Shown: positions 11,295-14,861, counted from the stretch's first letter. The stretch is DNA of 14,861 nucleotides from a virus (IMGVR_UViG_2778261068_000004); one strand, 5' to 3'. A program made the numbers and translations. Notes: a model not told the origin generated them from the letters alone.

Positions 11295-12035
11295 ATGCAT
11301 CGTATAGACACGAAAACCGCGCAGAAGGATAAGTTCGGCGCGGGTAAGAACGGTTTTACCCGTGGTAACCCCCAGACCGGCACACCTGCCACCGATCTGG
11401 ATGATGACTACTTTGACATGTTGCAGGAGGAGCTTTGCAGCGTTGTGGAGGCATCCGGTGCCAGTCTGGAGAAGGCGCGGCATGACCAGCTGCTTACCGC
11501 GCTTCGTGCGCTGCTGTTAAGCCGCAAGAATCCGTTTGGCGATATCAAATCGGATGGCACGGTGAAAACGGCTCTCGAAAACCTTGGTTTAGGAGAAGGC
11601 TCAGCATTGCCTGTTGGCGTACCTGTTCCGTGGCCCTCAGCCACTCCGCCAACAGGCTGGCTAAAATGCAACGGAGCAGCTTTTTCTGCTGAAGAATACC
11701 CGGAACTGGCAAAGGCTTACCCGACAAATAAATTGCCTGATTTACGTGGTGAGTTTATTCGTGGCTGGGATGATGGGCGCGGCATTGATACAGGGCGTGC
11801 TTTATTGAGTATTCAGAGTGATGAAGTCAGAAAGCTCGCATTAAAATACTGGGGGCCAGCTTCAAACAGTTCACCATCAAAAACATTTGCACTCAGCGAC
11901 AGTGCCGGTGGCGGGTTGTACACGGATGGAATAAGTCAGGCAAGCGGTGGGATTATCAACGCTTTTCAGCTCCCCGGCGGGAGTGAAACCCGTCCACGAA
12001 ATATTGCATTTAACTATATCGTGAGGGCTGCATAA
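11295..12035 (+). CDS. stf: Side tail fibre, currently expressed isoform (constant N-terminal part plus cassette A tip)
   Basis: 246 aa; GGAG 7 nt upstream. N-terminus [26 protein letters not shown] is the Mu S / e14 StfP-type N-terminus. The variable part after the crossover motif ENLGLGEG carries a phage tail-collar-like motif (PVPWP ... [23 protein letters not shown] ... [12 protein letters not shown]). Confidence 0.8.
11572..11597. repeat. Left hix/gix/pix-like recombination site (12-2-12, core TT) inside the tail fibre gene
   Basis: CTCTCGAAAACC-TT-GGTTTAGGAGAA. Quasi-palindromic and close to the Hin site TTCTTGAAAACC-AA-GGTTTTTGATAA as I recall it. The core TT occupies positions 2-3 of the Leu codon in ENLGLGEG. 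Confidence 0.6.
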
Positions 12036-12637
12036 TGGATAACGCCGTATTAAATAGCGAGCTTATTGCCACGAAGGCGGGGAATATTACCGTCTATAAC
12101 TATGATGGTGAAACTCGGGAATATATTTCCACATCAAATGAATATCTTGCCATTGGTGTCGGTATCCCTGCATATTCCTGTTTAGATGCGCCAGTTACAC
12201 ATAAAGCTGGTTATGCTATCTGCCGCTCAGCAGATTTTAACTCATGGGAATATGTGCCAGACCATCGCGGTGAAATTGTCTATAACACCGAAACGGGAGA
12301 TGCCAAAGAAATCACAGCACCAGGCGACTATCCCGAAAAAACAACCACTCTCGCACCGTTAACGCCATACGATAAATGGGATGGTGAGAAATGGGTGACC
12401 GATACTGAGGCACAGCATAGCGCCGCAGTAGAAGCGGCAGAAGCACAGCGCCAGTCGCTGATTGATGCTGCAATGGCTTCTATCAGTCTGATTCAACTGA
12501 AATTACAGGCCGGGCGGAAGCTGACGCAGACAGAAAACACCCGACTTAACGCCGTGCTGGATTACATTGACGCGGTGACGGCAACAGATACCAGCACCGC
12601 GCCGGATGTCATCTGGCCTGAACTGCCGGAGGCGTAG
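12035..12637 (+). CDS. tfa: Tail fibre assembly protein (cassette A)
   Basis: 200 aa; TAATG overlap with stf. N-terminus [30 protein letters not shown] is typical Tfa. C-terminal motif LNAVLDYIDAVTATDTSTAPDVIWPELP is shared with the opposite-strand paralogue. Confidence 0.8.
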   Translation: MDNAVLNSELIATKAGNITVYNYDGETREYISTSNEYLAIGVGIPAYSCLDAPVTHKAGYAICRSADFNSWEYVPDHRGEIVYNTETGDAKEITAPGDYPEKTTTLAPLTPYDKWDGEKWVTDTEAQHSAAVEAAEAQRQSLIDAAMASISLIQLKLQAGRKLTQTENTRLNAVLDYIDAVTATDTSTAPDVIWPELPEA

Positions 12638-13052
12638 GCCATTCAATATCTGGAGCACTGGAGGTATCAACCAGTTCCAGTGCGTCCAGATAATCCAGCC
12701 ACAAATTATATTGCGCCAGTTCCTCACCTTTCAGACGACCAATAGCTGCTTTGCCAGGCCATTGCTTACTGTTCATATATTCGTTGGCATTATCAATAAG
12801 ATTTTGCTTTTGAGCTGTGGCAAGGAGCATTGCTTCTTCAGGAGCCATTGGTAGAATATCAACCCACTTAGGTTGTCCATCATCATTTGCACCGCGCGCT
12901 TTCCCTTCAGGTGGTGTTCCTGAATAAGTCAAAAATATTTCATCAGATACTGGTGTAATATCATCCGGTAAGCTGTCATATGAGCGATATAGCTCCAGCA
13001 TATCTACCGGATAAAAAGCTAACGTCGTCCGTGAAAAATAATAATTACTCAT
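12609..13052 (-). CDS. tfa: Tail fibre assembly protein (cassette B, silent in this orientation)
   Basis: 147 aa on the minus strand; C-terminus YNLWLDYLDALELVDTSSAPDIEWPTPP parallels the Tfa motif of cassette A. Its 3' end overlaps the 3' end of the + strand tfa by 29 nt. Confidence 0.75.
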   Translation of the reverse strand: MSNYYFSRTTLAFYPVDMLELYRSYDSLPDDITPVSDEIFLTYSGTPPEGKARGANDDGQPKWVDILPMAPEEAMLLATAQKQNLIDNANEYMNSKQWPGKAAIGRLKGEELAQYNLWLDYLDALELVDTSSAPDIEWPTPPAVQAR

Positions 13053-13053
13053 A

Positions 13054-13407
13054 TCAGCACCCTATTGCAAACCAGCGAAAATTATAATTGCCACCAGAAG
13101 CATCACAGCGTAGAAGAAATCCTGTCCTGGTCATATTCCCTGCTGCCCCGGCAACAATTTTTCCGCCACCATTATCGTAGGACGTCACCACCTGAAAACA
13201 TTGTGACGGAAAAGCGATTGGGAAATTCATCTCATTGCCTGTCGAGCCTACATAACCCGTACCTGCATCTCCTGCCCCCCATTGGATAATCAATCCTCCC
13301 GGTAACTTCTGATATCCCTTGCTGGCAATGCTGCCAGAAAAAGAACTCATATCCGGTATCTGACCTGAACCTGTTCCTACATTTCGTTTTGCCGCTTCTC
13401 CCAAACC
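13054..13407 (-). CDS. stf: Promoterless alternative tail-fibre C-terminal cassette (tip B); becomes fused to the stf N-terminus after inversion
   Basis: Minus-strand frame reads ...INVGLGEAAKRNVGTGSG...GYQKLPGGLIIQWG...NFPIAFPSQCFQVV...GFLLRCDASGGNYNFRWFAIGC, resembling Mu S / lambda Stf-type C-terminal receptor-binding domains. It is in frame with the stf constant part across the crossover core. The Met codons at 13449 upstream are probably not used. Confidence 0.65.
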   Translation of the reverse strand, partial: GLGEAAKRNVGTGSGQIPDMSSFSGSIASKGYQKLPGGLIIQWGAGDAGTGYVGSTGNEMNFPIAFPSQCFQVVTSYDNGGGKIVAGAAGNMTRTGFLLRCDASGGNYNFRWFAIGC

Positions 13408-13421
13408 AACGTTTATGAAAA
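13396..13421. repeat. Right hix/gix/pix-like recombination site (12-2-12, core AA on top strand, i.e. inverted relative to the left site)
   Basis: TTCTCCCAAACC-AA-CGTTTATGAAAA. Its reverse complement shares about 19 of 21 nt with the left site around the core (AAACSTTGGTTTRGGAGAAG). Lies 55 nt upstream of the invertase ATG. Confidence 0.6.
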
Positions 13422-13475
13422 TGAAGAAATAACAAGCAAATGGCATCATTCCTGCTTTTACCAGGGGGATTTAAC

Positions 13476-14030
13476 ATGCTTATTGGCTATGTACGCGTAT
13501 CAACAAATGACCAGAACACAGATCTACAACGTAATGCGCTGAACTGTGCAGGATGCGAGCTGATTTTTGAAGACAAGATAAGCGGCACAAAGTCCGAAAG
13601 GCCGGGACTGAAAAAACTGCTCAGGACATTATCGGCAGGTGACACTCTGGTTGTCTGGAAGCTGGATCGGCTGGGGCGTAGTATGCGGCATCTTGTCGTG
13701 CTGGTGGAGGAGTTGCGCGAACGAGGCATCAACTTTCGTAGTCTGACGGATTCAATTGATACCAGCACACCAATGGGACGCTTTTTCTTTCATGTGATGG
13801 GTGCCCTGGCTGAAATGGAGCGTGAACTGATTGTTGAACGAACAAAAGCTGGACTGGAAACTGCTCGTGCACAGGGACGAATTGGTGGACGTCGTCCCAA
13901 ACTTACACCAGAACAATGGGCACAAGCTGGACGATTAATTGCAGCAGGAACTCCTCGCCAGAAGGTGGCAATTATCTATGATGTGGGGGTATCGACTTTG
14001 TATAAGAAGTTTCCGGTCGGAGATAAATGA
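13476..14030 (+). CDS. pin: Serine DNA invertase (Pin/Gin/Hin/Cin family)
   Basis: 184 aa from ATG 13476, with AGGGGG Shine-Dalgarno 8 nt upstream; the track's 13440 start adds 12 unlikely residues. MLIGYVRVSTNDQNTDLQ carries the catalytic Ser of small serine recombinases; GRRPKLTPEQ and the C-terminal HTH are as in Pin/Gin. Appears nearly identical to E. coli e14 Pin from memory. Confidence 0.9.
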   Translation: MLIGYVRVSTNDQNTDLQRNALNCAGCELIFEDKISGTKSERPGLKKLLRTLSAGDTLVVWKLDRLGRSMRHLVVLVEELRERGINFRSLTDSIDTSTPMGRFFFHVMGALAEMERELIVERTKAGLETARAQGRIGGRRPKLTPEQWAQAGRLIAAGTPRQKVAIIYDVGVSTLYKKFPVGDK

Positions 14031-14032
14031 AA

Positions 14033-14065
14033 CCGTAGCACGTCGTATGCAAGATCGTGCTGCGG
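14033..14065. terminator. Putative bidirectional terminator hairpin between the convergent pin and GIY-YIG genes
   Basis: CCGTAGCACG (14033-14042) pairs with CGTGCTGCGG (14056-14065), 10 bp including one G-U, with a 13-nt loop. T-rich on the + strand after the stem (TTTATGCTTAT) and on the - strand after the stem (complement of GATAAATGAAA). Confidence 0.35.
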
Positions 14066-14087
14066 TTTATGCTTATCACTTAAAGAC

Positions 14088-14861
14088 TCAAAAATTAGGT
14101 GAGTAACGGACCGGGGACATAGCTCCTTTTTTTCTTAATTCATCTGGTATTTTTTTTCCAAGATAAAGATTTGCTATTTCAGGTGGGGCTTCTCGACCTT
14201 CAAAACCATAGCGAGAACTTTGTGTTGCCTCAAAGTCAGGATCTTCGTCCCAGTATTTCATCGTAGGGAAATTTTCACGTGTTGATTTGAGCCATTTATC
14301 AGCAATGAAAACCCCTCGAACGATTCCCCTTACAGTAGCAAGAATGACTTCTGCTTGGCTGGCGCGAGAGACATTAATGCGCCAGCTAAATCGAACCGCA
14401 TCATAAAGCTCTGAATCCTTTGCACTTCTGTTAACGGAAATCATTAATGCTTTATGATGAAATGTTATGGTTTCGGGTTGATATGTTGCTATCAACTCTT
14501 TGACATGCGCGGCGCCGAATTCATTGCTGCCAGCACCATTAATGATATTCGTTAACCCAGGGTAGGCATCAATAAGTGCTGCTTCAACTTCGTACGCCGT
14601 CTTTTCATCAGTCATTCCGTGTCGATGGATGACGTGGATAACTTCAAGTCCTGCTAACCTTATTTCTCTAATTTGCTTTAGCTTGTTGCTCAGTAACTCG
14701 TCATCGTCAGCTGCTGCCACTTCACCGCGCATATGGGCAAATACGCGGTTACCTTTGCCTTTCCCTACATAGAAGGTGCTTCCGTCCCTCGGATCAATCA
14801 ATCGGTAAACATACCAGCCAAGATGCTCAATTACTCCAGAGGGAAACTCAGTAATATCCAT
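14088..14861 (-). CDS. GIY-YIG nuclease-domain protein of unknown function (257 aa); candidate defence / exclusion nuclease or free-standing homing endonuclease
   Basis: N-terminal 100 aa carries the full GIY-YIG catalytic set in canonical order and spacing: WYVY, FYVGKG, NR, FAH, YEVEAAL, NIINGAG (compared with I-TevI Y, Y, R, H, E, N). The C-terminal 160 aa has no motif I recognise. The gene is AT-rich relative to the tail module and convergent with pin. Its start codon is the last 3 nt of the window, so the 5' end and ribosome-binding site are unverified. Confidence 0.6.

Follow-up and report, generated by a model that had tools for sequence, protein, structure and literature searches.

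In the invertible tail-fibre switches of the Din family, among them the G segment with Gin of phage Mu, the C segment with Cin of P1, Min of p15B and Hin of Salmonella, the invertase gene lies beside the invertible segment, a crossover site sits at the border between the constant and the variable part of the fibre, and the fibre ends come with their own chaperones. We have analysed a viral stretch of 14,861 nt, IMGVR_UViG_2778261068_000004 (hereafter the window, on the whole of which all positions are counted), where a fibre gene, two chaperone genes, a second fibre cassette and the invertase gene pin lie to the right of a contractile-tail module, and we conclude that a break in base composition near 11.6 kb very probably marks the point where the constant and variable fibre parts meet in an invertible tail-fibre switch of the Pin type. 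The window follows the same switch logic as the Gin, Cin, Min and Hin systems, and no Mu, Hin or canonical P1 record was present among the matches listed by megablast against the phage collection. A P1-like plasmid has a variable part 82.9% identical to that of the window, but its left half-site is different and encodes ...LNYLGLGE.

Among the described systems, the P segment and PinE of e14 in Escherichia coli K-12 (stfP-tfaP-tfaE-stfE-pinE-mcrA) resemble the window in gene order and have the same inverted-repeat core, the constant part of the fibre, Sc, being 96.4% identical, pin with the right crossover site 98.3% identical, and Pin itself identical to PinE at 182 of 184 residues. PinE, PinQ and PinR have been shown experimentally to invert the e14 segment, and Pin proteins furthermore work in trans on the sites of another prophage (PMC12529663). 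The segment measures 1824 bp in the window as against 1797 bp published for e14 (PMC12529663), and e14 is a remnant, whereas the tail module of the window is intact. The window also differs from e14 in having another gp53-like cassette with its chaperone, another tip of the collar cassette and the gene PD-T4-3 instead of mcrA, and its left site reads TTA at 11591, where e14 and the other compared relatives with the core read TTG. By its gene order and identity, the locus is an intact relative of the e14 Pin/P-segment switch on a complete SfV-like tail module. SfV itself (orf14-orf22) is collinear with the window at 97.4% identity over 6100-11598 (5.5 kb, orf14-orf21), and its orf21 shares the 26-bp site as well as the compositional step that occurs there at third codon positions. 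Unlike the window, it has a single gp53-like fibre end with a single chaperone and, behind these, the serotype-conversion genes gtr; neither an invertase nor a second cassette is annotated. That fibre ends and chaperones pass horizontally between phages of the Mu, P2, P1 and lambda types, the borders coinciding with inversion crossover sites, was reported by Haggard-Ljungquist 1992 and Sandmeier 1992, 1994 (cited in PMC3945230), and the window shows the same pattern. Beyond them it adds detail, namely a change point in third-position composition at the site, counts over 5426 E. coli genomes and a fine map of the patches.

The break was located by maximum likelihood as a single change point in total G+C, with support intervals of 2 log-likelihood units, followed by recursive segmentation at a log-likelihood ratio (LLR) of at least 10. 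The single best change point fell at 11661 (support 11634-11998, LLR 46), with a G+C of 0.559 to its left and 0.463 to its right, and no second break was found in the 14.9-kb window by the recursive segmentation. The descent of total G+C is spread over about 400 nt, from 0.54 at 11600 to 0.47 at 11700 and 0.41 at 12000; in a 400-nt profile the values lie at 0.50-0.62 from 1 to about 11600, except for one of 0.48 at the tape-measure gene, where the left block dips to about 0.48-0.51, and are heterogeneous (0.43-0.52) past about 11800. The G+C content of third codon positions (GC3) has its change point at 11564/11567 (LLR 81), where it goes from 0.613 to 0.393, and the 85-nt support interval, 11519-11603, includes the left crossover site at 11572-11597. 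GC3 is 0.53-0.69 in 16 of 16 coding units on the left and 0.32-0.46 in six of six on the right, a complete separation (exact Mann-Whitney p=2.7e-5), and within the fibre gene alone the 96 codons preceding the site have a value of 0.646 and the 151 following it one of 0.391 (Fisher p=1.4e-4). The codon adaptation index (CAI; reference set, 25 K-12 ribosomal-protein genes) likewise falls from 0.37-0.51 to 0.28-0.38, with the exception of tfa(+) at 0.46. Amino-acid composition can be excluded as the cause of the break, because G+C at first positions (GC1) is alike on both sides, with no fall, and at second positions (GC2) rises from 0.41 to 0.56, being higher in both variable fibre parts; chance fluctuation is excluded by the LLR of 81 and by the recurrence of the step on six other backbones. 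The break is real, and it is sharp only at synonymous third positions. A first-pass annotation of the window had described a sharp drop beginning close to a left hix-like site, and its hand counts were exact (0.60 in 8401-8460 and 0.40 in 14101-14220); the step near 11.6 kb is present as it had expected, codon adaptation, which it had proposed to compute, falls as well, and the GC3 support interval agrees with its placement of the drop, though its word sharp is right for GC3 and wrong for the gradual fall in total G+C.

The fibre gene (11295-12035, plus strand) encodes 246 residues with a tail-collar domain, and domain calls throughout were made with Pfam. Its constant part Sc occupies 97 codons (11295..11585, plus strand) ending in ...ALENLGLGE, has a GC3 of 0.64 and matches SfV orf21 and e14 stfP at 96-98% identity as far as 11598/11599, and the expressed variable part, Sv (11586..12035, plus strand), is of the tail-collar type (Collar, E=1e-15, residues 108-155), with a GC3 of 0.39 and a CAI of 0.31. 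The TfaE-like tail-fibre assembly chaperone of the expressed cassette (12035..12637, plus strand; Caudo_TAP, E=6e-32) is followed on the minus strand by Tfa', the chaperone of the silent cassette (12609..13052; Caudo_TAP, E=3e-28; GC3 0.32), and by the silent alternative variable part Sv' (13054..13408 within an open reading frame at 13054-13449; Gp53-like_C, E=3e-20). Beyond these lies pin (13476..14030, plus strand), which encodes a Din-family serine DNA invertase (Resolvase, E=2.5e-51, and a C-terminal HTH_7, E=5e-15) with the N-terminal motif GYVRVST.

The segment is bounded by a pair of inverted 26-bp crossover sites, each an imperfect palindrome, whose central dinucleotides, TT and AA, are complementary. 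The left one, CTCTCGAAAACC-TT-GGTTTAGGAGAA (11572..11597, centre 11584-11585), lies inside the fibre reading frame, and the right one is TTCTCCCAAACC-AA-CGTTTATGAAAA (13396..13421, centre 13408-13409). The hix-like inverted repeat suspected earlier is real, 11579-11598 being complementary to 13395-13414 at 18 of 20 positions, and the left site matches the published e14 repeat TTGGTTTGGGAGAAGG at 15 of 16 positions (PMC12529663). The core AACCTTGGTTTRGGAGAAG is common to the window, SfV, HK97 and the P2-like phage T22, whose flanks differ on opposite sides. The left site of the window reads GGTTTAGGAGAA, where nine compared relatives with this core, including the closest one, E. coli L725, read GGTTTGGGAGAA; the change at position 11591, from TTG to TTA, is synonymous and reduces the match between the arms to 18 of 20, and the P1-like plasmid, whose site differs, is not one of these nine. 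A 16-bp insertion, GGTATGCGAGAAGACC, is present in the right crossover site of the P2-like phage from E. coli O157:H43 T22 (L006 ~4860-4900). It repeats in reverse complement the 16 bp adjoining, on the left, the centre of the phage's left site, and it lengthens the inverted repeat and displaces the usual outer half-site CGTTTATGAAAA outward, gene conversion between the two sites being one possibility.

Inverting 11585-13408 (1824 bp) in silico gives an in-frame fibre of 214 residues with a gp53-like end and brings the start codon of Tfa' directly behind the alternative fibre. Three E. coli genomes (21EVA, SW071614 and MB06101) contain the fusion gene predicted in this way, full-length and at 97.8-98.1% identity; apart from a replaced collar-cassette tip (11815-11991), 21EVA and the inverted window are collinear, and K-12 records contain both orientations. 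By these matches both orientations occur in nature, seen in relatives rather than in the source strain itself, and the switch looks functional. The 5' part of pin would in addition carry a Fis-bound enhancer, an expectation drawn from the 98.3% nucleotide identity to e14 over 13395-14031.

Alignments to other phages change partners at the left site. Matches in the phage collection to SfV, SfI, SfII, SfIV, SKA5 and 720R4 span 9600-11598 and then end, and those to P2-like phages, Klebsiella phages, pro483 and HK97 begin at 11573-11584; in the local BLAST map, HK97, the P2-like phages, a Klebsiella phage, e14 stfE (inverted) and the P1-like plasmid start at 11571-11581, and SfV, e14 Sc, 606R2 and O157 end at 11598/11599. 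In a four-way alignment the window equals SfV through ...GGAGAAG and is unrelated to it beyond, and HK97 and the P2-like T22 are unrelated to the window before ...AACC and about 90% identical beyond. The data place the crossover no more finely than 11571-11599. In a spread sample of 60 E. coli records the alignment ends within about 20 nt of the left site in 48, and in the other 12 it runs through the site over at least 79% of the query; among 5426 complete E. coli genomes searched, 1847 contain the constant part and 1901 the variable part, and the two are contiguous in only 463. Many of these E. coli breaks at the left site are due to inversion of the segment and not to horizontal exchange. 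At the right site, five elements are identical outward from TTCTCCC through pin and fall inward into three unrelated groups, and matches to e14 and the P1-like plasmid begin at 13393-13395. Both sites bound the similarity between window and e14, which reaches 11599 in Sc and resumes at 13395 with an interior that has been replaced, and the right site (13396-13421) is on these alignments a second mosaic boundary.

The step in GC3 at the site is also found elsewhere, in SfV (0.67 to 0.41), HK97 (0.64 to 0.34), the P2-like T22 (0.54 to 0.38), e14 (0.66 to 0.34), 689R6 and the Klebsiella P2-like phage Kp4845-2 (0.58 to 0.38), and in the last of these G+C dips only over the invertible region and then recovers. 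There is no such step at the site in 606R2 and O157 Z1816 (0.45 to 0.43), where the constant part is itself AT-rich. GC3 on the variable side is 0.33-0.43 on every backbone examined, and because the cassette pool is so uniformly low, the step depends on the backbone and not on the site, becoming visible only where the cassettes meet a GC-richer tail module. A general AT bias of fast-circulating accessory phage DNA that is too transient to adopt the composition of its backbone is the probable reason for the low GC3. A search of 185,579 species genomes finds the exact 19-nt core in 19 stretches, 13 of them beside fibre, chaperone or Pin homologues; 12 of the 13 are in E. coli/Shigella, Morganella, Erwinia, Lonsdalea and Pseudocitrobacter and one is on a contig labelled as a Bacillota metagenome-assembled genome, and the remaining six look like chance occurrences, about four being expected by our own estimate. 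An origin of the cassettes in a low-GC host is unsupported, since the 12 carriers from named genera are not AT-rich organisms. In Morganella, Erwinia and Lonsdalea the exact core stands beside Pin homologues that are only 62-67% identical, and is therefore kept as a DNA site. The Bacillota-labelled contig (L033 154-457) encodes a fibre constant part of 99% protein identity and is most likely a mis-binned enterobacterial prophage contig.

To the right of the left site the similarity is patchy. Further recurrent breakpoints lie at 11520, 11782-11816, 11984-11994, 12037, 12346-12354, 12641-12813, 13339-13348 and 14031, and the cassettes either match various phages at 83-91% identity or have no relation to them, whereas pin and the right site match e14 far more closely, as given above. 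Stretches of Sv are 87-91% identical to HK97 stf, a Klebsiella phage and e14 stfE (about 11571-11816), and the whole of Sv likewise to gene H of the P2-like T22; in the TfaE-like region, HK97, e14 and the Klebsiella phage begin to match at 11984-11994, and 606R2 and O157 at 12346-12354. E. coli L725, the closest relative, has an overall identity of 97.4% that ranges from 94.9% in Sv and tfa to 100%, with clusters of differences at 11603-11702, 12277-12505 and 13944-14015. Between these, 12506-13943 (1438 nt, running from the last part of tfa through the silent cassette and the right site into pin, most of which it covers) holds zero differences, which has a probability of about 1e-16 at the mean rate, the two prophages differing elsewhere at 2.6%, and this indicates a recent recombination tract. 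The patchy identity to L725 points to a homologous exchange of patches that is piecewise and continuing. On these comparisons the right-hand block consists of pieces with separate histories and not of one module, and the pieces are drawn from a pool common to unrelated enterobacterial phages of the Mu/SfV, P2, P1 and lambda/HK97 types. The phage vB_EcoM-689R6 (L011 5696-8004, a partial record) has a fibre gene that tracks the window to 11782 and then stops, with mcrA and an invertase gene on the opposite strand behind it and neither chaperones nor a second cassette, as though an e14-like switch had undergone deletion or rearrangement.

The 97 codons of Sc close the SfV-like tail module and would dock the fibre on this particular baseplate, and Pin, by flipping the 1824 bp, would swap the collar-type end and its chaperone for the gp53-like end with its own. 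The pile-up of junctions at the site would be due to its being the point where constant sequence stops; the site would also be the one short stretch that the need for invertase binding keeps the same from family to family. Within a family, homologous recombination in the shared flanks (Sc, the C-terminus of tfa and pin) would re-assort the cassettes wherever in the flanks the crossover fell, and in comparisons the break would always seem to lie at the site. Homologous recombination within stf-tfa between lambda and defective prophages has indeed been shown experimentally (PMC3945230). Between families with unrelated constant parts the crossover would have to fall inside the roughly 19-26 common bases, either by short-homology recombination or by the invertase; we lean slightly to short-homology recombination as the general process, because most other breakpoints lie off the crossover sites, which shows that a general mechanism has to be at work too.

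The notion that the whole of 11.6-14.9 kb was acquired as one foreign module joined at the site, which the first-pass annotation had put forward, draws on the facts that one change point suffices for total G+C, that GC3 is low in all six right-hand units and that one contiguous match spans at least 80% of 10700-14861 in L725 and about 100 genomes. Nearest relatives and divergence however differ from part to part (pin at 98.3% to e14, the cassettes at 83-91%, and mcrA in place of the GIY-YIG nuclease gene at 14031), the identity to L725 runs from 94.9% to 100% and the Sv tip at 11815-11991 is replaced in 21EVA, and with the additional breakpoints this makes acquisition as a single block very unlikely. 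What stands of that proposal is horizontal exchange with a junction at the recombination site, the breakpoints in related phages being clustered there (ends at 11598/11599, starts at 11571-11584) rather than scattered; its single module gives way to a patchwork. A functional demand for AT-richer DNA, acting through amino acids, through flexibility needed for the inversion complex or through H-NS silencing, would be in keeping with the low GC3 of the cassettes on every backbone examined, which could be due to selection, but the drop is confined to third positions, with GC1 similar and GC2 higher, and it extends to an unrelated defence gene and, in L725, to cargo of 31-35% G+C unconnected to inversion, so that we consider this explanation highly improbable.

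A stronger competitor holds that Din-family invertases (Pin, Gin, Cin and Min) recombine sites on different phage genomes or co-resident prophages and that this is the main reason for the position of the junction, the sites in the invertase-less SfV and HK97 being footprints of such events. This would account for the joining of unrelated constant parts (HK97, P2-like, P1-like and SfV-type) to the same variable part within about 19-26 nt, and for the coincidence of both segment ends with the boundaries between window and e14, as expected for a two-site cassette swap. A recognisable 26-bp site moreover persists in SfV and HK97, where the stretches examined have no annotated invertase, and partner sites are at hand, E. 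coli genomes holding a median of 2 and a maximum of 11 similar places. The trans action of Pin on the sites of other prophages (PMC12529663) points the same way, and the view is already found in the literature (PMC3945230). The other breakpoints listed above lie however mostly off the sites (11520, 11782-11816, 11984-11994, 12346-12354, 12641-12813, 13339-13348 and 14031), a within-family junction at the site is expected from homologous recombination in the flanks anyway, and the limits of 11571-11599 leave the crossover too coarsely placed to single out the invertase. Wild-type Din invertases furthermore strongly favour intramolecular inversion on supercoiled DNA with a Fis enhancer in cis. 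The limits of identity do not separate site-specific from homologous exchange, the right half-site being invariant in the nine compared relatives with this core and the inner bases of the left half-site fixed by consensus. On balance we regard invertase exchange as a possible but not the favoured reason for the junction's position. The broader idea that Din crossover sites are natural cassette-exchange sites, at which the invertase moves receptor-binding cassettes between phage families or co-resident prophages, is a tentative one that we think rather doubtful; it reportedly goes back to Sandmeier in 1994, and we know of no direct demonstration of it.

Our preferred reading, that the break marks the constant/variable junction of a Pin-type switch whose junctions may arise by homologous and short-homology recombination, has several points weighing against it. 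The change point in total G+C, at 11661, lies about 75 nt to the right of the centre of the site and the fall is gradual, so that only GC3 puts the break on the site. The species carrying the exact core are not low-GC organisms, and the inversion of the window's own element is read from sequence and not directly observed. The approximately 19 nt common to unrelated constant parts are short for RecA-type recombination, which weakens the short-homology route between families. The literature, finally, favours exchange driven by the invertase (De Paepe et al.; PMC3945230).

The backbone to which the switch is joined is a conserved, GC-rich, SfV-like (Mu-type) contractile-tail module (1..11291, plus strand), with which SfV (6100-11598), 689R6 and E. 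coli L725 align collinearly at 97.4% identity. It includes, all on the plus strand, the sheath (2135-3631), tape-measure (4398-6233) and baseplate genes and homologues of Mu gp47 (9658-10716; Baseplate_J, E=3e-52) and of Mu gp48/YmfQ (10707-11291; Phage_Mu_Gp48, E=3e-26), the last two lying immediately 5' of the fibre gene in an order collinear with SfV. At the other end of the locus, a strong hairpin (14030..14068; minimum free energy -23.6 kcal/mol, z=-4.8) separates the convergent pin and GIY-YIG genes at the next junction between modules, and matches to e14 and 689R6 stop there, at 14031. About 50 nt at 14019-14067 are 94% identical to a stretch 3' of tfa in HK97 (L005 3731-3780), a copy recurs in E. 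coli L725 (L007 16355-16393), and the hairpin may be a terminator-like element marking module borders. Scanned for promoters and terminators, 11200-14861 gave counts that were not above those of shuffled sequence.

The GIY-YIG nuclease gene (14088..14861, minus strand; LEM-3_GIY-YIG, E=3e-14; G+C 0.435, GC3 0.36), which the first-pass annotation had listed as nuclease cargo, is by full-length profile match the catalogued anti-phage defence gene PD-T4-3 (PADLOC-DB, E=9.6e-140, residues 1-256 of 257). The known PD-T4-3 is a single-gene system in PADLOC-DB, and the window gene is like it over its full length, GIY-YIG domain included, with no difference detected in the profile comparison. In K-12 e14 the same slot holds the restriction gene mcrA, and the two arrangements part at the stop codon of pin (14030/14031). 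Defence genes seem to have a small hotspot 3' of the invertase, with PD-T4-3 here and McrA in e14. Judged by the context in E. coli L725, the locus lies at the cargo end of a prophage. Past the GIY-YIG gene L725 carries genes for a hypothetical protein and an AAA ATPase (L007 16634-18660, 31-35% G+C), which may be an additional defence-like cargo pair, followed by a truncated LysR gene and paoD, at which point the sequence is chromosomal again.

The mosaic pattern of fibre genes has been known since the early 1990s and the window is a clean example of it, so that the value of the present analysis lies mainly in annotation and method. Codon-position composition alone places the border between the constant and variable parts of the fibre within about 40 nt. 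The same border is where natural host-range cassettes are swapped, which makes it a sensible splice point for fibre engineering as well.

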